DNA from: Pseudogymnoascus verrucosus
Lineage: Eukaryota
Direction: 5' to 3' (one strand)
Assembly: GCA_001662655.1 (NCBI GenBank)
Contig: KV460209.1
Length of the DNA stretch: 64,000 bases
In this document: one piece after another, positions 16,676 to 25,057 of the stretch
Position numbering within the stretch: position 1 is the stretch's first letter
Layout of the letters: the number at the start of each line of letters is the position of its first letter
Translations under genes and position numbers: made by a program
The notes under the pieces: model-generated
Told to the model about the DNA's origin: nothing
The model's input: only the letters and a program-made list of their open reading frames with translations
Databases searched by the model: none

Positions 16676-18422
16676 TCAAAGCATATACACAAACTTTCTA
16701 CTTACGTCTCTCCTGGCATTTTCGCCAACGAGAGTGTCCTCCTCCTCCTCCTTGTCCACTTCTACATATTCCCCTCCATTTTGCTTCTCATTGTTTCTAT
16801 TCTTCCTCGAAAGATAGAATCGCAGTATAACTGCCAAAGCGGCAACCACTACCATTGCTCCTGCGCAACCAGCCATCCCACGTGTATAATACGGCGCATC
16901 AACATCAGGATACAATCTTGTCCCGACTAATGGTCCACACTGGCCCACAAGCTGCAACATAGCAAATCCAGCACCCTGTTTACTTTCCGACTCCTGATTA
17001 TTGATCGTCCAAGTTATAACAATCGTAATCACGCTGAAAAATCCAATCGCAGCTGGATATATAGCAGCATAGCGCCACCAAACCCCCAACCCAAATCTCT
17101 CCGCAAGAGCGAGCACGAGATACCCTGAACAGGAGAAGAGCGCATGGAAGATAATGAAGGTCGAACGTGACTGCACACGATCGGAGAGGTATGCTGTTAA
17201 AATCACGATGAAAAATGACATGAGATATGGAGGGGCCGAGAGCGCTTGCGACACAACGGAGGAGTGGCCCATAGATCGGATAATGATAGGTAAAAATACA
17301 GGCATCGATGAGAACGCCATGTTGGTGAAGAAGAACATGAAAGCAGTCAGATAGGCTTTGGGATCCAATATTGTCTCGAGGACCTCTCGCCATTTGAGTC
17401 CGCCCTTGGTCGCAGCACCTCCTTGGCGACGACGTAGGCGTAATCGGGCAACCTTTCTTTCCCTCGCAGTCAGGTACTTTGCTTTTGCCGGTCCGTCTGG
17501 GATAACATGCCAGGCGATGACAGACACGATGACACTTGGAAATCCTTCAACGAGGAATAACAGGCGCCATGGCGCAATAGGACCGTTTTCTCCGAGCTTA
17601 AGAATCGCCCATGCGAGGGCGCTGGCGAATGAGGTTGCCAGAGGGGCGGCGCTTATAAAAAGTCCGGTGCGCAAGGCCAGCTCTTCTTTCCTGTAAAAGA
17701 AGGACAAAAAGTATGGGATTCCAGTAAAGCCAGCTTCGCCAATCCCAAGGAGTAGTCGTAGTATTATGGATGTGACGAATGAAGTTGACAGAGCTTGAAG
17801 AGATGCGATAATTCCCCACGACATGACGATTACAGAGACGTATATGTGTGCAGGTATGATTTTCCAAAGCAAAGACATCCACTCGAACATGATATATGTG
17901 ATGTAAAACGACGTGAGGATCCATTCGTATTGATCCGAATGAAGATTCAAATCAACATCCATTCCTGCGATTCGAGCATTGCCAATATCTTTGGGTGTGT
18001 CAGCAGCTGTCGATACAATTGGGCACAGTATACGCACTTGATCTATCCAAAAAACTCAACATGTACAATAGTGCTACAAATAATACAAGCCTCTTGTCAA
18101 ACTTTCTGACCACTGCGCGCTCCTCGTCTGGTGTATACAATTGAAACGATTGTGTTGTCGAGGCGCTGCCTCGGCGGGGAAATGTATTGCTGCCATCGTC
18201 GCCAGTCCGAAGAGGTGCCTCAAAATCTGCCTCTTTATCTTGAGATTGGAGTTCTATGCTCTCGTGGCCATTGTAATCGTCGTCGAAGTCTGAATCCCCA
18301 GAGTCGGGTTCGGGTGTCAATCGATTCGCACGGGAACTGGAGCTGGAATCTGAGGGCACAATGTCACTTCGAGCCCCTGACTTATCGCCGACATGCGACG
18401 CCTGAGGGAGACTTGAGGCCAT
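16676..18422 (-). CDS. MFS transporter, anion:cation symporter (allantoate/nicotinate permease, Dal5/Tna1-like); intron 18037-17989
   Basis: ERAVVRKFDKRL...SFLDRS|NIGNARIAG after splicing, RLLLGIGEAG, PWRLLFLVEGFPS, and about 12 hydrophobic segments. Confidence 0.9.
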
Positions 18423-18776
18423 TCTGAGCCATCAAGATTGTTGAACTTCAAACAGCAGGAAAAATATATTCAATTCATAGTTTGTTCATTCCGTAGCCTC
18501 ACCACCATCGTGGCCCTGAACTGGGATGCGGTTGGTTCTAGCTATGACGGGTGCGGTGGAGACCCTTAAGGGTTGGCGTGGGGTACTTTTGCAAGGGTAT
18601 CACGATCCACAACGTAAGTGAGGCATGGGTTGGACCGCGAATAGATTTCACATAAGCTTCACATCCATATCAAATGAACTTTCAACTTCCAACTTTCAAC
18701 AGGAATACAGAACATTTTCACAGATCAAATTTATGGCAGAATGAATATATTTGATGAGCTATTTGAACTATCTAAA

Positions 18777-18913
18777 TTATGTAGGTCACTTGGGCGTAAA
18801 GGGCTTTTGGGTTTTTGGCAATGTTGGACCCTGTACCTGCACCGTGCGACAGTATGAATTTTGGCGTGAATGACAACTCCGACCGGGGCAGAACAAAGTT
18901 GTCATCCGTTGCC
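18777..18913 (-). ncRNA. Putative H/ACA-like two-hairpin small RNA, unit 3 (most diverged)
   Basis: Hairpin GGAUGACAACUUUG/CGGAGUUGUCAUUC, A-rich hinge (AAAAUUCA, not a canonical H box), second hairpin with internal loop, then CU-ACA-UAA. Similarity to the other units ends just after ACA. Confidence 0.5.
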
Positions 18914-18962
18914 TGTATGGCCGAAGAGGAAAGAAGGAAAGAACGATCCGGAAGAGGGGTGT

Positions 18963-18998
18963 TGGAAGTGGCATTTGAACTTTCAAAAGCCACCTCCA
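18963..18998 (-). other. Spacer stem-loop capped by AAGU tetraloop (candidate RNase III site)
   Basis: UGGAGGUGGC-U-UUUGA-AAGU-UCAAA-U-GCCACUUCCA; the G-U pair forms only on the minus strand. Confidence 0.55.
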
Positions 18999-18999
18999 T

Positions 19000-19142
19000 T
19001 CATGTAGGCCACCTGGGCATAAAGGGCTCTTGCGTATTTGGCAATGTCAGGCCCTTTACCCTGCACCGTGCGACAGTATGTGTTTTGGCGTGGATGCCAA
19101 CTCAACTGCAGATGGAAGCTGCAAGAGTTGGCACCCGTGGCC
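19000..19142 (-). ncRNA. Putative H/ACA-like two-hairpin small RNA, unit 2
   Basis: Hairpin GGGUGCCAACUC/GAGUUGGCAUCC, H-box-like AAAACA, hairpin GUCGC..UAAAGGGC/GCCCUUUA..GUGGC, then CU-ACA-UGA. Confidence 0.6.
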
Positions 19143-19211
19143 GTGAAGTGAAGTGAAGAAGAAGGAAGAAACGAGAAGGAAGAGAGGAAGAAAGATCAGG
19201 AAGGGGGGTGT

Positions 19212-19246
19212 TGGAAGTGGCATTTGAACTTTCAAAGCCACCTCCA
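19212..19246 (-). other. Spacer stem-loop capped by AAGU tetraloop (candidate RNase III site)
   Basis: UGGAGGUGGCUUUGA-AAGU-UCAAA-U-GCCACUUCCA; nearly identical to 18963-18998. Confidence 0.55.
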
Positions 19247-19247
19247 C

Positions 19248-19389
19248 TCATGTAGATCACTTGGGCGTGAAAGGCTCTTGCGTTTTTGGCAATTTCAGGC
19301 CCTTCACCTGCACCATGCGACAGTATTTATATTGGCGTGGATGCCAACTCAACTGCAGATGGAAGCTGCAGGAGTGGGCATCTGTGGCC
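19248..19389 (-). ncRNA. Putative H/ACA-like two-hairpin small RNA, unit 1
   Basis: Hairpin GAUGCC.ACUC..UGCAG/CUGCA..GAGU.GGCAUC, H-box-like AUAUAA, hairpin GUGAAGGGC/GCCUUUCAC, then CU-ACA-UGA. Confidence 0.6.
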
Positions 19390-19404
19390 TGAACGGTGAT
19401 ATGT

Positions 19405-19470
19405 GAAGAAAAAAGAAAGAAGAAGGAAGAAGGAAAAGGTCTCGGGGGTGGAGTTGGGGGGGGATTTATA
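19405..19470 (-). promoter_or_regulatory. TATA box plus pyrimidine (CT) tract upstream of the RNA array
   Basis: Minus-strand TATAAA at 19470-19465 followed by CCTTTTCCTTCTTCCTTCTTCTTTCTTTTTTCTTC, a typical fungal Pol II core-promoter arrangement; no credible CDS downstream. Confidence 0.5.
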
Positions 19471-19841
19471 TTCCTGGGTCTGCGACGCCAGATCACTCAA
19501 GCGCGCTATCACCAAATAAGCGCGACTCTCACGAGAGGACGCCATTGGCTAGATCAAGCTAGATCAAGGAGAAGCGAATCAAAGTTAACGCTTGTAGGCG
19601 GTGCAAACACGGCAAACGTTGGTCCAGTTCTGTAACTGGCCTGGAGGGGTGCAAACAGTGCAAATATCTGTCTAGTGCCGCACAGTCCTAAACCAGACGT
19701 GGAAGGTACGTTGTGTGGCCATATACATTGGAAGGATGATACTACAACTGTTGCTCTCTTTCTTCGTTGCCATAGGTCACCATAGACGTCCCCTGCTTGT
19801 GAGCTGCCTTTGTTGGAGCTATGTTTATTGCAGTCTATATA

Positions 19842-21842
19842 CTATATACCCCATATCTGATTCCATCGTCTACTATCACCATCCAACGGCCCATCCAACC
19901 TTCCAAACCTTGGAGGCGTTCTAGAGGTAGATTCTGGCAAGCAGACCCATTCTCGGACACAGCCAGGGATCTCCTCTCGAACGTGGCTAATGCACAAGAG
20001 GGCCTGCTCAGGACCTAATCCTCGAATAGCTACGTTGCCTGCCCGTGAGGCGTCGGATTCAATAACATCACGCGAGCCACCCTTCCACTGGAACGTTTTG
20101 GTTTCTCCATGGGCAAGGAATAACATGCATTTATCTCTCACGACTTCATCCATACCACCAAATGATTCATCCAAGATCACAAGATCTGGCTTCTTGACTA
20201 TGGCTCGTAGGAATAATGCAACACGCTGAGACGAGAACGGTAGATCGTTGAAGAGGCATTCACTAGCCCATGCGGTTGAATCAAGAGCTGGCTTTGAGGC
20301 ATCACTGGCAGCAGCACCTGGCCGCAACTCATGCTCAAACCATTTGAGGCAGGCTTCGACAGCCGCAACAGCGCCTTTATCCAACGTCGGGATTGCCATG
20401 AACGTCTCCGACCAAGCGTTCTCCAGTGTCTGCCTAAGTGTCAGAGTACGTGGGATATGGTGGTGTATCTCGGGTGAAGAGTGACCGATCCGTGCCTGAA
20501 TGTCAAAGATGGATATTCCAAGTTTGCCAGGCTCAGGGAGACGTGACCGCCCAAACAACTTCACAGGCTGCGAGTATGTCTGAGGGTGGTCGGAGCAAAT
20601 CAGAGAAAGAATAGTGGTCTTTCCACTCCCGTTCGCACCGATGATACCCCATCGCTGACCCCGCCTGACTTTCCAATAGAGACCTTTCTGGGGCTTGCCA
20701 TCCACGTCTTGTGTCCAGTTACCGAGGACAATTTTCGGCCCGTATGCCACGCGAACACCGTCCATGTCAACCAGAATTTCTCCTGTTTCCGCTTCCTTCG
20801 ATTCTTCCATGTCGTCTCCCCGAGTAGATGAAGGAGTTCCAGTTTCCTCTGGGGTGTCTGGCTCCACAATTCCTCGATCGGTGAGAGTCCGACCAATTTC
20901 ATGGAGGGACTGAATTGGGATGTTGACGGCGCTACCACTGTTTGCTTTCAGTTCGCTCAGGACCTCCTCCTTCGGTCCTTTGAAAGCTACTTCGCATTCC
21001 GGGCGTAGATACATAAGATGCGTAATCCAGTCCGGAATTGGATCTTGAGGTCTCAACGAAAGAATAAGCCTGGGATCATTGGCCTTCGCAAGTCCATGTA
21101 GCAATGGGCTCAAAGTCATCAGGGTTGGTGGATCAAGTCCCATGAGCGGCTCATCCAACAACAGAACTTCTGGTTTTCCAAGCAATGCCCTGGCAATCTT
21201 TGCTCTCCTAGTCTGTCCATTAGACAGGTTTGACACTGGCATATCGATAAGGTCTCCGAGTCTCAAATCCTCAATGACTCTTTTCAAAGATGCCTCGTTA
21301 ATGGACTTGCTTTTCTCTTCTTCTGAAGGATTCAGCTCCGTCCTGCCCTGGAGATAATTCAGGACGGTCCAGTCCGTGGCCTCCCGGTGAGCCTCATATC
21401 TCGCGCTCAGGTATGCCCCTCTGGTTCCCTGCCCCGACAAAACTCCTTGCTCGCCACCAAAGCCGACATATTGTATCGCTCTACTGGGTATGCGTAATTC
21501 ATGGTTCTTCTGATTTATCTCCTCGGAGTTAAGGTACGGATATGACCGAGCGGTAGGTGGAAGAGACAAATATAGTCCTCTCAAAATCTGTAGAAATGTG
21601 GTTTTTCCAGAAGATGATGGCCCCAATATGGCCCAGTAATGAGGATCTTCTGGGAATGAGGGTAATTCAAAATTTAAGTCCTTGAACAGTGCTGGATTGG
21701 CTTGTTTTGCAGCCAGGGAGGACGGATGATGACGGTAGAACGTGCCATTTTTAATTTGTATTATAGCCGGTTTAGAAGTCGCCAAGCTGTAGCTTCGTGA
21801 AGAGATCCTATGAAAAGGACCTTTTATCTTAATTAACCTCAT
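19842..21842 (-). CDS. Soluble dual-domain ABC ATPase without transmembrane domains (ModF / yeast YDR061W-like), probably mitochondrial
   Basis: GPSSSGKT, LSNGQ, LLLDEP; second domain GANGSGKT, VILDESF; Arg/Ser-rich N-terminus. Confidence 0.85.
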   Translation of the reverse strand: MRLIKIKGPFHRISSRSYSLATSKPAIIQIKNGTFYRHHPSSLAAKQANPALFKDLNFELPSFPEDPHYWAILGPSSSGKTTFLQILRGLYLSLPPTARSYPYLNSEEINQKNHELRIPSRAIQYVGFGGEQGVLSGQGTRGAYLSARYEAHREATDWTVLNYLQGRTELNPSEEEKSKSINEASLKRVIEDLRLGDLIDMPVSNLSNGQTRRAKIARALLGKPEVLLLDEPLMGLDPPTLMTLSPLLHGLAKANDPRLILSLRPQDPIPDWITHLMYLRPECEVAFKGPKEEVLSELKANSGSAVNIPIQSLHEIGRTLTDRGIVEPDTPEETGTPSSTRGDDMEESKEAETGEILVDMDGVRVAYGPKIVLGNWTQDVDGKPQKGLYWKVRRGQRWGIIGANGSGKTTILSLICSDHPQTYSQPVKLFGRSRLPEPGKLGISIFDIQARIGHSSPEIHHHIPRTLTLRQTLENAWSETFMAIPTLDKGAVAAVEACLKWFEHELRPGAAASDASKPALDSTAWASECLFNDLPFSSQRVALFLRAIVKKPDLVILDESFGGMDEVVRDKCMLFLAHGETKTFQWKGGSRDVIESDASRAGNVAIRGLGPEQALLCISHVREEIPGCVREWVCLPESTSRTPPRFGRLDGPLDGDSRRWNQIWGI

Positions 21843-22097: not shown

Positions 22098-22660
22098 ATG
22101 GTAAATACCCCCTCTCGACTCTCAATCCTACACTCCAAACTCTCTCACGTCACCAAGGGAGACCTCACCAAGACCTCACAACTAACTCTCATCAGTCCAT
22201 GCGCATCGCCCCCGCCTCCGGCCACTCCTCCCTCCACTCCCACCTCGGTGCCAAATCCGCCGGCGCCCCCTCCGCCCCAGGTCTCCACGACACCCTCCGC
22301 GTAGGCCTCGGCCCAACCACCCACGGCTCCTCCGAAACCCTCCAACTCGACTCCGCCCACCCTCTCGAATCGCGTCTCGCACAATGGACCGCAACGCAGG
22401 ACAGCCTGAAGCTTGAGGGTCTGCGGAGGACATTCGGCATGGCGGAGCCGATTCGTCGGGGCATGGAGCTCAAGATCACGAGAGATGGAGAGTGGCGCCC
22501 GTTGGTGCTGGGAGGTGGACAGCCGAGTGTTCATGAGGATATTTTGGCGGGCAGGGATACGGGGTGTACCTGGGAGGATGTTTTCCAGGGGACGGAGATG
22601 AGGGGGGTGCAGGGCTTCCATGAGGAGTTGGAGACGAAGGTTAGGATGGGACAGCAGTAG
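22098..22660 (+). CDS. UMP1: Proteasome maturation factor Ump1; ATG-only first exon, intron 22101-22195
   Basis: HPLESRL..W, LRRTFGMAEPIRRGMELKI, HEDILAGRD..TWEDVF; ATG|GTAAAT..CTAAC..CAG|TCC. Confidence 0.9.
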
Positions 22661-23251
22661 ATGGGTGGTGAAGTGGAGGTTGTACGAATAGCCTGGCGGA
22701 TAGATGGAGCTACATGGTATTTGCAGGAAGCATTGGCGATGGTTTTCTAGGACGGGATAGGAATGCAAGGAGTCACAAATACATTTCTAGTCACAAGAAG
22801 GAAGAGCGGATCACAATCAGGGACGAAGACCTGAGAAAATGACCCGCTTGTCTATCATATGGAACACGATCCATTGAATAATTCATTCGCTGTGCCTTTG
22901 TAACACCCCATGGACCTCTCTGCCCTCCCATACCTGTACAATTTCAGAACCAAATGAAAAACAGTTCCCCTGCCAGTGCTAAACGAAGTGACGGCGCCCT
23001 ATGATGCTGAAGAAAACAATCCTGCGGTGTCATATGTGTCCGCTAATCGGGAACCCGAACGCCTGTACAGCCCATCCATGTATCATCCCCAGCCCCGTGG
23101 TATAAAGAATCTGCCATTGCCTCCTCACATCCGCGTGGGGGCCAAAGCAGAACTAGGGAGAATGGAGAGGCAAAATCCTCCGTCGTATGGTGTCGTTATA
23201 TCGCATTAAATGCTCGCATGTCGGATTAAATTCCTGGTTCGTCGTAACGTC

Positions 23252-24186
23252 TCATAGAATGACACAGCGTCCACACCCAGGCGTTGGTTCCGGCCGTTCG
23301 TGCTGTCTGGCTTCGGCCCTCTTCCGCTCTGTCTCCTCCTCATCCACTATGTCCTGAGGACGTACCGTCATATGTACAACATTCGTCGCAGTCTCGTTGA
23401 ATCTGCACTCTATTGATGGGGTTAGTCTAAAATCCCGTCACCCGGTTGGGCTGGGATTGCTTCCATACCTTTCAGCGCCACATTGTCATTCAACAACCGT
23501 CCAAAATAAATCAAACGGATACTGCTCGGGCTCGTAGGCTTAGCATCCCATTCTTCCCTCCACTCCTTCAGGATCAGCTCTTTCAGCATAATTACGCTGA
23601 TGCTGTATGGGTCCTTCTTGCCGGTCTCCGTAACACCCGGGATGGTCATTTGCCGCTTCAGTAGATACCGCTCGTCTACTCTGTATCCATGTCGTGCCCC
23701 AGACGTAAGGAGAAGCATGATATTGCAGACCGGATTCGCCACATCCGTTGAAGGCGATACGGTGCTGGCCAGCGGTTGTCCCTCATCCGCCGCCGTCTCG
23801 CCCGTGTTTGAACCCAGAGACAATGGCGCCGAACTGCTGATGACCTCCTTGCTCTTCTCCTCGCCGTCAATGGCAGTAGAGTCCTCTGACGACTGCATCG
23901 CTTCCTGGGCCTCGCTCAAGGTGGTTGTTGGTGCTGGTTCTTGTGGCGCTACAGCGACTGGCGGCTGCGCTGGGGTCTCCTCCATCTCCCTGTTTACCAT
24001 GCTGGACATCGGAGGTATCGGTCCAAATGGCGTGGGGATGTTCTTCGTGATGTCTGTTGTGACACTGCTCGTGCTTCTGGTCAGGTCGTCCAGCTCGATA
24101 GTGGCATTTGGACGTTGCCCCAGTGGTCGGGGATCGGACCCAGTGTTGTCGGGGCCTGAGACTTGGCGAGGGTGAAGCGACTCCAT
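23252..24186 (-). CDS. Membrane-anchored ubiquitin-fold protein (UBL3/MUB family) with C-terminal CAAX; intron 23468-23410
   Basis: LKELILKEWREEW..PTSPSSIRLIYFGRLL; spliced last exon NVVHMTVRPQD...GCGRCVIL-stop. Confidence 0.85.
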
Positions 24187-25057
24187 TGGTGGGTGGCCCA
24201 CGTAGAGCGCTCTAATCGATTACTCCGTATGTGAGTGTAGGGGTTTGTACCAGAGCTACGATGAAGTATACACTTTAGTGTCCTGCGATATCGAATGAAG
24301 AGCTTCGTATCGTAAGAATATCTATAATATATGGTAAGGCGCGTACATGTACTTTACAGTAGCACAGCAATCTGGAGCGGGGATGTGTGTGTCAGTGAGG
24401 TAGATGGAAGTAGTGAAGAGTACAAGAGTTCCAGTACACTGACACGCCTGAAACCTTGTACCTCTGTTGGCAATGACGGAGCGAGATAAACATGGCCAAA
24501 CGTCACAAATAGAGACACATACCCTCTGTGTACTCATACAAACAATCAAATCTACGCATACAGTCTATGGTTTCAAATCTGCAGCAATCAAAGCTATACG
24601 TCCCTAATGAATCCAGTTGCATCCTATCTTGCTCACCGCGATAAGCCTCTGCCTTGCTTTCACATGGGGCTGCATATATACTCTCAGATCACAGGTTTAT
24701 TGCGTGCCAACTTGTTTTCCAAGACACTCCCTGATTGGCTTTCAGAGTTATCTTGGTAAGTATAATGTGGTTTGGCTGGCTGGCTGGCGATTTCGGCATT
24801 TGGGTTCTTGCCACCGGCCAACTCGGAAGCGTATGGATTACTACACAAGCTTTCTGGCTTACGGGATATTTTCAGGGTCTTCGAATGAGATATGCAAGAC
24901 ATGGTCGCGTGTTGAAAAAAACTGCAATCTTCTGATCTGAGTCTATCTACTTGACTAATAACGTAGCATTTTCATTTCCTCGTGTATGTTCACGTAAACC
25001 TCGACCACCCACGACAATCTTCTTCAGCGTCGATCCATGGGAGGCATTCATGCCACC

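Follow-up and report, generated by a model that had tools for sequence, protein, structure and literature searches.

A three-copy element between an ABC and an MFS gene

Fungal genome annotations seldom include snoRNAs, and among these the H/ACA RNAs are the hardest to find. The question raised by the region between an ORF with ABC_tran domains and an MFS transporter gene is whether the three diverged copies of a two-hairpin element lying there on the minus strand are small-RNA genes and, if so, whether they belong to the H/ACA class. An earlier, sequence-only reading had placed the copies in this intergenic region, downstream of a TATAAA box and a CT tract, and had interpreted them as H/ACA-like. 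Both promoter-like elements are present (19470-19465 and about 19440-19405), and the copies were recovered by a repeat search and by a covariance model alike. The features of this part of the window (the whole 64-kb stretch of DNA that was analysed) are the following:

19842 to 21842, minus strand: upstream neighbour, an ORF with ABC_tran domains, whose stop codon lies 372 nt upstream of the TATA box
19465 to 19470, minus strand: TATAAA box, read in the sequence, lying 76 nt ahead of hairpin 1 of unit A
19405 to 19440, minus strand: CT-rich tract, read in the sequence, between TATAAA and unit A
19248 to 19389, minus strand: unit A (covariance model 172.9 bits, folds, alignment); hairpin 1 at 19389-19334, hinge at 19333-19322, hairpin 2 at 19321-19256, ACA at 19253-19251, predicted 3' end at 19248
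19000 to 19142, minus strand: unit B (covariance model 172.8 bits, folds, alignment); hairpin 1 at 19142-19087, hinge at 19086-19075, hairpin 2 at 19074-19008, ACA at 19005-19003, predicted 3' end at 19000
18777 to 18913, minus strand: unit C (covariance model 150.7 bits, folds, alignment); hairpin 1 at 18913-18863, hinge at 18862-18851, hairpin 2 at 18850-18785, ACA at 18782-18780, predicted 3' end at 18777
16676 to 18422, minus strand: downstream neighbour, an MFS transporter (MFS_1) in two ORF pieces, 18422-18000 and 18037-16676, the second of which carries MFS_1

The repeat search defined a three-copy family at 18779-18879, 19003-19103 and 19250-19350, and the covariance model built from the copies gave exactly three matches in the window at E<=10, all on the minus strand (19392-19245, 19145-18997 and 18916-18774). 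A 15-nt core, GTCGCAYGGTGCAGG, occurs three times at up to two mismatches, against 0.34 occurrences expected, a number that none of 100 shuffles reached. Measured from the first stem to 3 nt past the ACA, units A, B and C are 142, 143 and 137 nt long. Unit C is the most diverged, with a different hairpin 1 apex and a broken apical stem in hairpin 2.

Several other identities were considered and dropped. Neither period of the array (247 and 224 nt) is divisible by three, which argues against a coding repeat, and the 113-aa plus-strand ORF at 18815-19156 was regarded as mechanical. No boxes of a C/D snoRNA, a tRNA-like or a Pol III element were seen on reading the sequence, and a TPP riboswitch or other known RNA was set aside for want of an Rfam match.

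Base pairing is conserved on the minus strand only

Each unit folds on the minus strand into a hairpin, an A-rich hinge, a second hairpin and a CUACAUNN tail, with fold z-scores of -3.9, -3.9 and -2.3 for the three units on this strand and of -1.9, -3.3 and +0.8 on the plus strand. The minus-strand RNAalifold consensus comprises 39 pairs with a covariation term of -1.42; 23 of these pairs are invariant, eight stay paired as G-U after a change in one partner, three stay paired after changes in both partners, and in the remaining five one cell is broken or gapped. For the plus strand 49 pairs were predicted, 16 of them with a broken cell, and the covariation term was +3.57. The compensatory changes claimed for both hairpins were found, C-G to A-U at columns 15/49 of hairpin 1 and A-U to G-C at columns 89/125 of hairpin 2, in each case among the three copies. 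The basal stem strand GUCGC had likewise been read as having three partners, and G-U pairs account for its pairing with GUGAU, GUGGC or GUGAC. Transition-type stem changes on the minus strand kept pairing eight times as G-U and broke it once as A-C, in agreement with the claim that several G-U pairs work on this strand only (binomial p=0.02); this statistic and the constraint statistics given below are weak, since the comparative set consists of three close relatives and three paralogues, and the tandem copies may have been homogenised by gene conversion.

The conservation of pairs is thus strand-specific, being confined to the minus strand, and the units are supported as strand-specific, structured, paralogous RNA-like elements with an H/ACA-like layout. 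Such a pattern, with minus-strand pairs kept as G-U eight times and lost as A-C once, and with a broken cell in 16 of the 49 plus-strand pairs, is not predicted by a DNA palindrome. It bears directly on the possibility that the array is a tandem repeat of DNA only, palindromic within its units and without RNA function, such as a minisatellite or a foldback or MITE-like remnant. A repeat search over 18300-19900 hints in the same direction, as none of the three inverted pairs that it found flanks the array as terminal repeats; one of them is formed by both arms of hairpin 1 of unit B.

Constraint and copy number in close relatives

The comparative set was made up of three close relatives (about 95% alike; sequencing runs X3, X4 and X6) in addition to the three paralogues. 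In X3 the units carry eight differences over 394 nt, against 20 over 368 nt in the spacers and flank (Fisher p=0.019), so that the units diverge less than their surroundings, contrary to what a functionless repeat would lead one to expect. Some of the differences in the relatives keep or restore pairing (19272, G-U to G-C; 18902, A-U to G-U; 18810, which restores the apical stem) and others are unfavourable (18837, in the 5' loop strand, in X4; 19074, which breaks the basal pair of unit B, in X6). In a diverged single-unit contig of X6, the only sequence between the flanks that aligned, at 80% identity or more, was 62 nt of hairpin 2, with one difference. Conservation there covers the 3' hairpin in full, apical loop included, and is not confined to the loop strands.

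The number of copies varies among these genomes, with three here and two and one in X6 contigs, and this is what a DNA repeat might show, as are the decay of unit C and the failure to find any homologue in the metagenome and genome collections searched. On the other hand, many dispersed copies of MITE or SINE type, which the sequence-only reading had named as evidence against an RNA gene, were not encountered: only the three tandem copies occur in the 64-kb window, and 39-mers common to units A and B have a depth of 99.4 in X3 (38.1 and 49.7 on neighbouring contigs) and of 39.4 in X4 (21.7 and 19.8), that is, about twice single copy in both relatives, which fits two A/B copies and not a dispersed family. 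Taken with the strand-specific pairing, these observations leave a DNA repeat without RNA function rather improbable. Transitions and transversions between the copies number 30:20, 36:33 and 33:31, with no clear signal of repeat-induced point mutation.

Beyond the relatives' runs, no orthologues were found in metagenome contigs or in prokaryote genome contigs. Seventeen metagenome loci with an 18-nt core pattern bore by eye no resemblance to the units beyond the pattern itself and were taken as chance, and one prokaryote contig locus with a two-part pattern (labelled Pseudomonas; 8.3 bits, E 0.12), GC-rich (0.72) and probably protein-coding, was read in the same way.

H/ACA-like features of the units

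The order hairpin, hinge, hairpin and tail holds for all three units on the minus strand, and their length lies within the roughly 120-300 nt of H/ACA RNAs. CUACAU is invariant among them, with the ACA 2 nt past the basal stem of hairpin 2 and 13 nt past its upper stem in every unit, in keeping with the predicted CU-ACA-NNN end near an internal loop that had been described. As had also been described, two of the three hinges contain ANANNA, namely AUAUAA from 19332 in unit A and AAAACA from 19086 in unit B, and the hinge of unit C lacks it, i.e. this unit has no H box.

The pockets fit the class less well. In the folds, hairpin 1 forms an all but uninterrupted stem (17-20 bp) and, as already noted in the sequence-only reading, has no proper pocket. 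In hairpin 2 the 13 nt between upper stem and ACA in all three units fit the pocket rule, by which the top of the internal loop lies 14-16 nt before the ACA or H box, but the conserved strands that had been assigned to this loop are base-paired to one another in all minimum-energy folds, and the hairpin becomes an irregular helix with hardly a break and a closed pocket. Forcing this pocket open costs 12.1, 8.2 and 9.3 kcal/mol in the three units, a cost to be read with the caution that minimum-energy programs often close the pockets of real H/ACA RNAs.

An Rfam search, proposed in the earlier reading, returned no family match: with Rfam 15 there were no matches at the gathering score in the whole 64-kb window, and even at E<=10 over 18400-19900 only a chance mir-3192 match, located in a spacer, was obtained.

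The closest cloned counterparts considered are the H/ACA snoRNAs of N. crassa, Nc ACA1-20. They share with the units the two hairpins, the A-rich hinge and an ACA with 3 nt after it (with tails such as CUACAUNN), as well as the intergenic site, a putative Pol II promoter and the frequent lack of a target; 16 of the 20 genes are intergenic and six are classed as orphans (PMC2780460). The unit tail YCUACAUNN resembles those of cloned ACA7, ACA9 and ACA13 (PMC2780460). The units differ from the N. crassa RNAs in being shorter (137-143 against 159-309 nt), in occurring as three tandem copies, and in having a 5' hairpin without a pocket and a self-complementary 3' pocket; most snoRNA genes there are singletons, isoforms are rare and gene clusters consist of C/D snoRNAs only (PMC2780460). 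The supplements of that paper lack the core motif, and neither a relative of the units nor any of their motifs was seen by eye among the 20 N. crassa H/ACA sequences (PMC2780460). A search of literature text by sequence for the 15-nt core on either strand gave no match, and fungal snoRNA sets beyond N. crassa may hold a matching family.

Search for a modification target

A canonical bipartite guide scan (at least three pairs per side, score threshold 8) was run with hairpin 2 against rDNA from eukaryotic contaminant contigs, which derive from organisms other than this fungus. Over 25 rDNA-bearing loci the best scores were 8.0-8.5 and no canonical hairpin 2 target emerged. At three test loci the real guide scored 8.0, and 127 of 200 shuffled guides did no worse; at 16 further loci with 3' parts of the LSU the best canonical score was 6.5. 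The earlier statement that no target could be assigned stands for the rDNA loci scanned. The LSU segment to which partial complementarity had been reported at the same time was found in seven LSU loci, but its canonical score stays below 8 and, by our own reading, only the 3' pocket strand pairs with it. A relaxed scan, with shifted pocket borders and one mismatch allowed, gave many weak matches and had no control; its best recurrent match, in the 5' part of 5.8S in three fungal-like loci, needs an opened basal stem and two extra unpaired bases and was set aside as non-canonical.

With no recognisable rRNA target and with loop strands that pair with each other, the element is best treated as an orphan H/ACA-type RNA. 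H/ACA RNAs of the snR30/U17 type are a possible parallel, in that function would reside in the conserved internal-loop strands of this last hairpin and no pseudouridylation target would be involved; the loop motifs m1 and m2 of snR30 do not occur in the units.

Membership of the H/ACA class is thus supported in part. The layout, the ACA geometry of three units and the ANANNA of two favour the H/ACA-like reading, and it is weakened by the pocketless hairpin 1, the closed pocket of hairpin 2 and the lack of an Rfam match or canonical rRNA target. The same weak points, together with the missing H box of one unit, the 8-12 kcal/mol needed to open hairpin 2 and the conservation of the entire 3' hairpin with its apical loop (62 nt with one difference in X6), would also be explained if the minus-strand RNA were structured but not part of an H/ACA RNP, for instance a lineage-specific hairpin RNA or a precursor of small RNAs made by Dicer or RNase III, with the ACA and the hinge incidental. 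We regard this as unlikely, if less so than a DNA repeat, because an incidental ACA would hardly be invariant and in the same position in all three units, and because two hairpins, length and tail match cloned fungal H/ACA RNAs. Orphans are common in this class, six being recorded in N. crassa (PMC2780460).

Spacer hairpins and a possible common transcript

Two further structures lie between the units:

19212 to 19246, minus strand: spacer hairpin A-B, an AAGU tetraloop on a 15-bp stem interrupted by one bulge
18963 to 18998, minus strand: spacer hairpin B-C, an AAGU tetraloop on a 15-bp stem that includes a 1x1 internal loop

Both internal spacers thus contain a 15-bp stem capped by AAGU, as in an RNase III stem-loop, for which an NGNN or AAGU tetraloop on a stem of about 14-16 bp is the rule (PMC4334505, PMC1868780). 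The first starts some 2 nt beyond the predicted 3' end of unit A and has a folding energy of -21.3 kcal/mol (z -4.34, with none of 200 shuffles as good), and the second reaches -22.2 kcal/mol (z -4.41); downstream of unit C there is no stable hairpin (-2.2 kcal/mol, z 0.08). In the relatives X3 and X4 a difference at 18980 turns the loop of spacer B-C into AACU, and another at 18972 breaks a pair of its stem. The spacer hairpins do not figure in the sequence-only reading.

The polycistronic snoRNA clusters of yeast hold mainly C/D snoRNAs of different families, whereas the units are paralogues of one H/ACA-like RNA, and the AACU loop of two relatives is a second point of difference. What the array appears to have in common with the Rnt1p-processed snR190-U14 and snR72-78 clusters is several units on one strand behind a single promoter, and spacers occupied by tetraloop stem-loops (PMC4334505, PMC1868780). 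Rnt1p is described as recognising NGNN or AAGU tetraloops and cutting 14 and 16 nt from the loop (PMC4334505, PMC1868780), distances that the stems found here are long enough to allow. Tandemly repeated clusters of plants and trypanosomatids, though from other kingdoms, are polycistronic and can include H/ACA snoRNAs, and plant snoRNAs have many gene variants, as cited in the N. crassa paper (PMC2780460).

A polycistronic organisation is suggested here by the single TATA box and the RNase III-type spacer hairpins. In promoters of filamentous fungi, a CT tract between the TATA box and the gene is the usual place of transcription start, and expression here would most probably run through one RNA polymerase II transcript beginning within or just after the CT tract downstream of TATAAA. 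CT tracts similar to that of unit A also stand ahead of units B and C (57-59% identity between copies); each unit having its own tract, separate starts are possible. A common transcript would be cut by an Rnt1-type RNase III at the two AAGU-capped hairpins, after which exonucleases would trim each piece as far as the hairpins shielded by protein. The product expected from each unit is a minus-strand small RNA of about 137-143 nt with a 5' hairpin, an H-box hinge, a 3' hairpin whose loop lies 13 nt before the ACA, and an end 3 nt after the ACA. The 3' hairpin would be its conserved working part, and the orphan RNA may guide pseudouridylation of another substrate or act without modifying anything. 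We infer that the units are transcribed, processed, bound by H/ACA proteins and functional.

It may be asked whether the repeats are instead cis elements of a neighbouring mRNA, either structured elements in a long MFS 5' leader or snoRNA-like or regulatory sequences in the 3' UTR of an ABC transcript that reads through. Both neighbours lie on the strand of the array, and about 355 nt separate its end from the first ATG of the MFS ORF, but TATAAA and its CT tract stand directly upstream of unit A, and we know of no mRNA leader with such an architecture and ACA tails. For organism K, one run (X15), taken to be RNA as no more than a guess, yielded a single 359-nt contig, which covers 19483-19590 and none of the units; its end just before the TATA box is a weak hint that the ABC transcript ends there and does not read through. 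Two N. crassa H/ACA snoRNAs do lie in 3' UTRs of protein genes (PMC2780460), and on balance the cis-element interpretation seems quite improbable to us. Neither strand of the conserved stretch at 19476-19600, upstream of the array, folds significantly (z -0.31 and -0.32).

Origin and meaning of the array

The reading that we prefer, and to which we give about an even chance, is that an orphan snoRNA gene of H/ACA type, restricted to this lineage, was recently triplicated to give the array and is probably expressed from one Pol II precursor. Its most likely history is that of a single ancestral gene duplicated twice in this lineage. That it is an unannotated three-copy array of small-RNA genes, a fairly ordinary kind of gene, is plausible. 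We hold as unlikely, but worth stating, a more specific version in which the RNA has the shape of an H/ACA RNA, is restricted to this lineage and does not act as a guide, the 3' hairpin being conserved as a whole, the pocket being a closed self-complementary helix, the genes being amplified in tandem (one to three copies) and the RNAs being released from one precursor at the AAGU-capped RNase III hairpins. If that version is true, filamentous fungi would have either a new H/ACA RNP without guide function or a small-RNA precursor put to two uses, and this would be the first polycistronic H/ACA array reported in them. Trypanosomatid H/ACA-like RNAs, by comparison, are single hairpins with an AGA box.

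Should the units be expressed, they would add an orphan H/ACA-type family that lies outside every curated model, and the preferred reading, if true, would mean that a snoRNA gene of a filamentous ascomycete has been amplified in tandem very recently. Through the AAGU-capped spacer hairpins, processing signals of the yeast RNase III type would become known from filamentous ascomycetes as well. The understanding of H/ACA RNAs themselves would be unaltered, the value of the locus lying in annotation and in the study of the birth and decay of snoRNA genes. The MFS transporter downstream of the array has its nearest protein clusters in Ascomycota.

Three tandem units on the minus strand

Three tandem units (A, B and C), lying on the minus strand with an ABC_tran ORF on one side and an MFS_1 ORF on the other, were confirmed where the sequence-only reading had placed an array of H/ACA-like RNAs. 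A repeat search recovered them as one 3-copy family, with a mean column identity of 77% over the aligned full repeat units, and a 15-nt core, a conserved short stretch of the units, was counted 3 times where chance would give 0.34. A covariance model of the three copies, as that reading had proposed, matched the three units and nothing else in the 64-kb window at E<=10.

Features of the array and its neighbours (window coordinates)
19842-21842, ABC_tran ORF (Pfam domain), upstream neighbour of the array
19470-19465, minus strand, TATAAA, read in sequence
~19440-19405, minus strand, CT tract, read in sequence
19392-19245, minus strand, covariance-model match (E<=10, 64-kb window), unit A
19145-18997, minus strand, covariance-model match (same search), unit B
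18916-18774, minus strand, covariance-model match (same search), unit C
16676-18037 (a further piece extends to 18422), MFS_1 ORF (Pfam domain), downstream neighbour of the array

In the protein atlas, the clusters nearest to the MFS piece belong to Ascomycota. This position between two ORFs could suit a cis element belonging to a neighbouring mRNA, a reading that we consider quite improbable; against it stand the TATA box and CT tract, from which the units would probably be transcribed as one Pol II precursor. Units B and C are each preceded by a shorter CT tract.

Counted from the first stem through ACA+3, units A, B and C are 142, 143 and 137 nt long. Hairpin 1 is a long, nearly perfect stem with GGC/GCC closing and, as had been remarked before, has no proper pocket. 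It is followed by an A-rich hinge of 12 nt, which contains ANANNA in units A and B and lacks it in unit C, in agreement with the earlier count of two in three. Hairpin 2 has a 5-bp basal stem (GUCGC with GUGAU, GUGGC or GUGAC), conserved loop strands AYGGUGCAGG and GCCCAR, and a 9-bp upper stem topped by a small apical stem-loop; the distance from the upper stem to the start of ACA is 13 nt in 3/3 units, and each unit ends in CU-ACA-NNN.

Conservation of pairing among paralogues and relatives

Fold z-scores were -3.91, -3.88 and -2.34 on the minus strand for units A, B and C, and -1.88, -3.27 and +0.77 on the plus strand. The minus-strand consensus contains 39 pairs (covariation term -1.42), including 23 invariant pairs, 8 with one-sided changes kept as G-U, 3 kept with both sides changed and 5 with one broken or gapped cell, whereas on the plus strand 16/49 predicted pairs have a broken cell (covariation term +3.57). 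Among transition-type changes in the minus-strand stems, 8 preserve pairing and 1 gives A-C (p=0.02 under neutrality). As evidence this is real but thin, because three paralogues are its whole base. Pairwise identity between paralogues is 82-85% for hairpin 2 throughout, 93% (A with B) and 63-67% (either with C) for hairpin 1, and 57-59% for the CT tracts. Unit-to-unit transitions and transversions (30:20, 36:33 and 33:31) give no marked transition excess.

Contigs from four coded runs of relatives were compared. In X3 and X4, which are ~95% alike over the covered part and whose contigs break within the repeats, 39-mers common to units A and B have a depth ~2x that of neighbouring contigs, which argues against a dispersed multi-copy element. 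X3 differs at 8/394 nt in the units versus 20/368 nt in the spacers and downstream flank (Fisher p=0.019). In the relatives, a G-U pair becomes G-C at 19272, A-U becomes G-U at 18902, and the unit B 3' loop strand becomes like those of A and C at 19013. At 18810 and 18806 unit C of the relatives reads like units A and B, the former change restoring the apical stem, and unit C of the window is therefore a degenerate form. Against the model, 19074 in X6 breaks a unit B basal pair, 18837 in X4 alters the unit C 5' loop strand, and in X3 and X4 the B-C spacer hairpin carries an AACU loop and one broken pair. A tandem repeat at the DNA level, without RNA function, could accommodate the variation in copy number described below and the decay of unit C; with the strand-specific pairing and the lower divergence of the units against it, we regard it as unlikely.

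X6 holds two forms: a two-unit contig that skips 19143-19444, and a more diverged single-unit contig in which, between the flanks, only 62 nt of hairpin 2 aligned at a threshold of 80 letters in 100 (19262-19323, 1 difference). Close relatives thus differ in copy number (1, 2 or 3), and the conserved core is the 3' hairpin. In the X6 contigs the copy-number variation lies at 19143-19444 and 18683-19261, and this run may represent two organisms or two alleles.

Relation to H/ACA RNAs

The H/ACA reading is favoured by the two-hairpin layout, by the length and by an ACA that is invariant and suitably spaced; the tail, too, resembles those of the cloned N. crassa RNAs ACA7, ACA9 and ACA13, which end in CUACAUNN (PMC2780460 supplement). 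Against it, unit C lacks an H box and hairpin 1 a pocket, and Rfam 15, a comparison that had been proposed, gave no match in the window at gathering score, nor in 18400-19900 at E<=10. Also against it, the loop strands of hairpin 2 are paired together in every fold, with opening costs of 12.1, 8.2 and 9.3 kcal/mol. Taken as tests, the H box over the units (2/3) and the open pocket of hairpin 2 decide neither way.

Possible rRNA targets were sought in stand-in rRNA, namely eukaryotic rDNA contaminating prokaryote assemblies and found with three standard rDNA primers, rather than this organism's own; pieces L036, L059, L064, L069, L022, L105, L111 and L146 are fungal-like by primer-adjacent sequence. 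The canonical bipartite scan required an unpaired U and one further base, uninterrupted pairing that starts at the pocket top (G-U counting as half a pair), 3 or more pairs per side and a score threshold of 8. The best score over 25 loci was 8.0-8.5; on three test loci a score of 8.0 was obtained with the real guide, and one of >=8 with 127/200 shuffled guides, and 16 loci with LSU 3' parts gave at best 6.5. The LSU segment with partial complementarity in the sequence-only reading is present in 7 LSU loci, but it falls below the threshold and, on our own reading, pairs with the 3' loop strand alone. Since scores are no better than those of shuffled guides and this segment is below threshold, no rRNA target is supported in the stand-in rDNA that the scan covered. 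Short contigs with eukaryotic rDNA, some fungal-like, occur in many assemblies catalogued under bacterial or archaeal genomes and MAGs (loci L018-L157); these contigs are evidently contaminants or mis-binned.

Because neither a curated family nor an rRNA target was found, and the H box and the open pocket decide neither way, we describe the units as looking or working like H/ACA RNAs, not as proven members. A structured RNA of another kind would fit the missing family and hairpin 1 pocket, less so the ACA spacing and tail, and seems to us rather unlikely. The most likely explanation, held at roughly even confidence, is that a gene for an orphan RNA of H/ACA architecture was recently triplicated; the 3' hairpin would be the functional part of this RNA. 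In N. crassa, 16/20 H/ACA genes are intergenic and six are classed as orphans, while snoRNA clusters hold C/D snoRNAs only and most snoRNA genes are singletons, a pattern tied by the authors of that study to repeat-induced point mutation (PMC2780460).

By eye, no relative of the units occurs among the 20 N. crassa H/ACA sequences (ACA1-20), and the core was not found in the literature searched; a matching family could be contained in the supplementary files to 'The fungal snoRNAome' and to the A. fumigatus paper, which lie outside that search. A metagenome scan for an 18-nt core returned 17 loci, none of which looks unit-like beyond the pattern itself, and these were taken for chance matches by eye. 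A single prokaryote-contig locus with the two-part pattern, labelled Pseudomonas, was likewise read as chance, being GC-rich and probably coding. The significance is modest, because snoRNA-like genes without annotation are common in fungal genomes and the array is known from sequence alone; the units are at best another case of an already known kind of gene.

Spacer hairpins

A 15-bp AAGU-capped hairpin directly follows unit A (-21.3 kcal/mol, z -4.3) and unit B (-22.2 kcal/mol, z -4.4), and none follows unit C (downstream fold -2.2 kcal/mol, z 0.08). According to PMC4334505 and PMC1868780, yeast Rnt1p recognises NGNN- or AAGU-capped stems and cleaves 14 and 16 nt from the loop, a distance that would reach the base of the spacer stems, a few nt past ACA+3; a quarter of all tetraloops would match NGNN or AAGU by chance, and the yeast rule may not be that of this fungus. 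By this analogy the hairpins fit a single precursor from which the units would be released, probably by cuts at such RNase III-type sites. Downstream of unit C, short AACTTTC/GAAAGTT heptamer repeats (18675-18702) echo the spacer-hairpin loop region and may be a decayed remnant of a third hairpin; in one X6 contig a further AACTTTC is inserted behind 18676.

Neighbouring sequence

Just upstream of the TATA box, 19483-19590 (on towards ~19620) is conserved in a 359-nt contig of organism K, a further relative, which differs at 6 of 108 nt; the contig stops at 19483, and its source run is only guessed to be RNA. The stretch has a CCAAT motif and no significant fold (z about -0.3) and, lying downstream of the ABC ORF stop codon, may be the end of the ABC gene 3' UTR. 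Between the ABC ORF and the array, a 29-nt element (GGTGCAAACA...GCAAA...) occurs as two direct copies (19600-19628 and 19648-19676), 76% alike and 48 nt apart, which could be transcription-factor binding sites; the start of the first recurs in the loose end of the organism K contig. Opposite units C and B, a 113-aa ORF with a TTG start (18815-19156, plus strand) is most likely mechanical, because the repeat periods, 224 and 247 nt, do not divide by three. ORF 23422-24201 (minus strand) encodes a ubiquitin-like Rad60-SLD_2 domain (E 1e-08), and no Pfam match was obtained for two nearby ORFs, 22145-22768 and 18000-18422.
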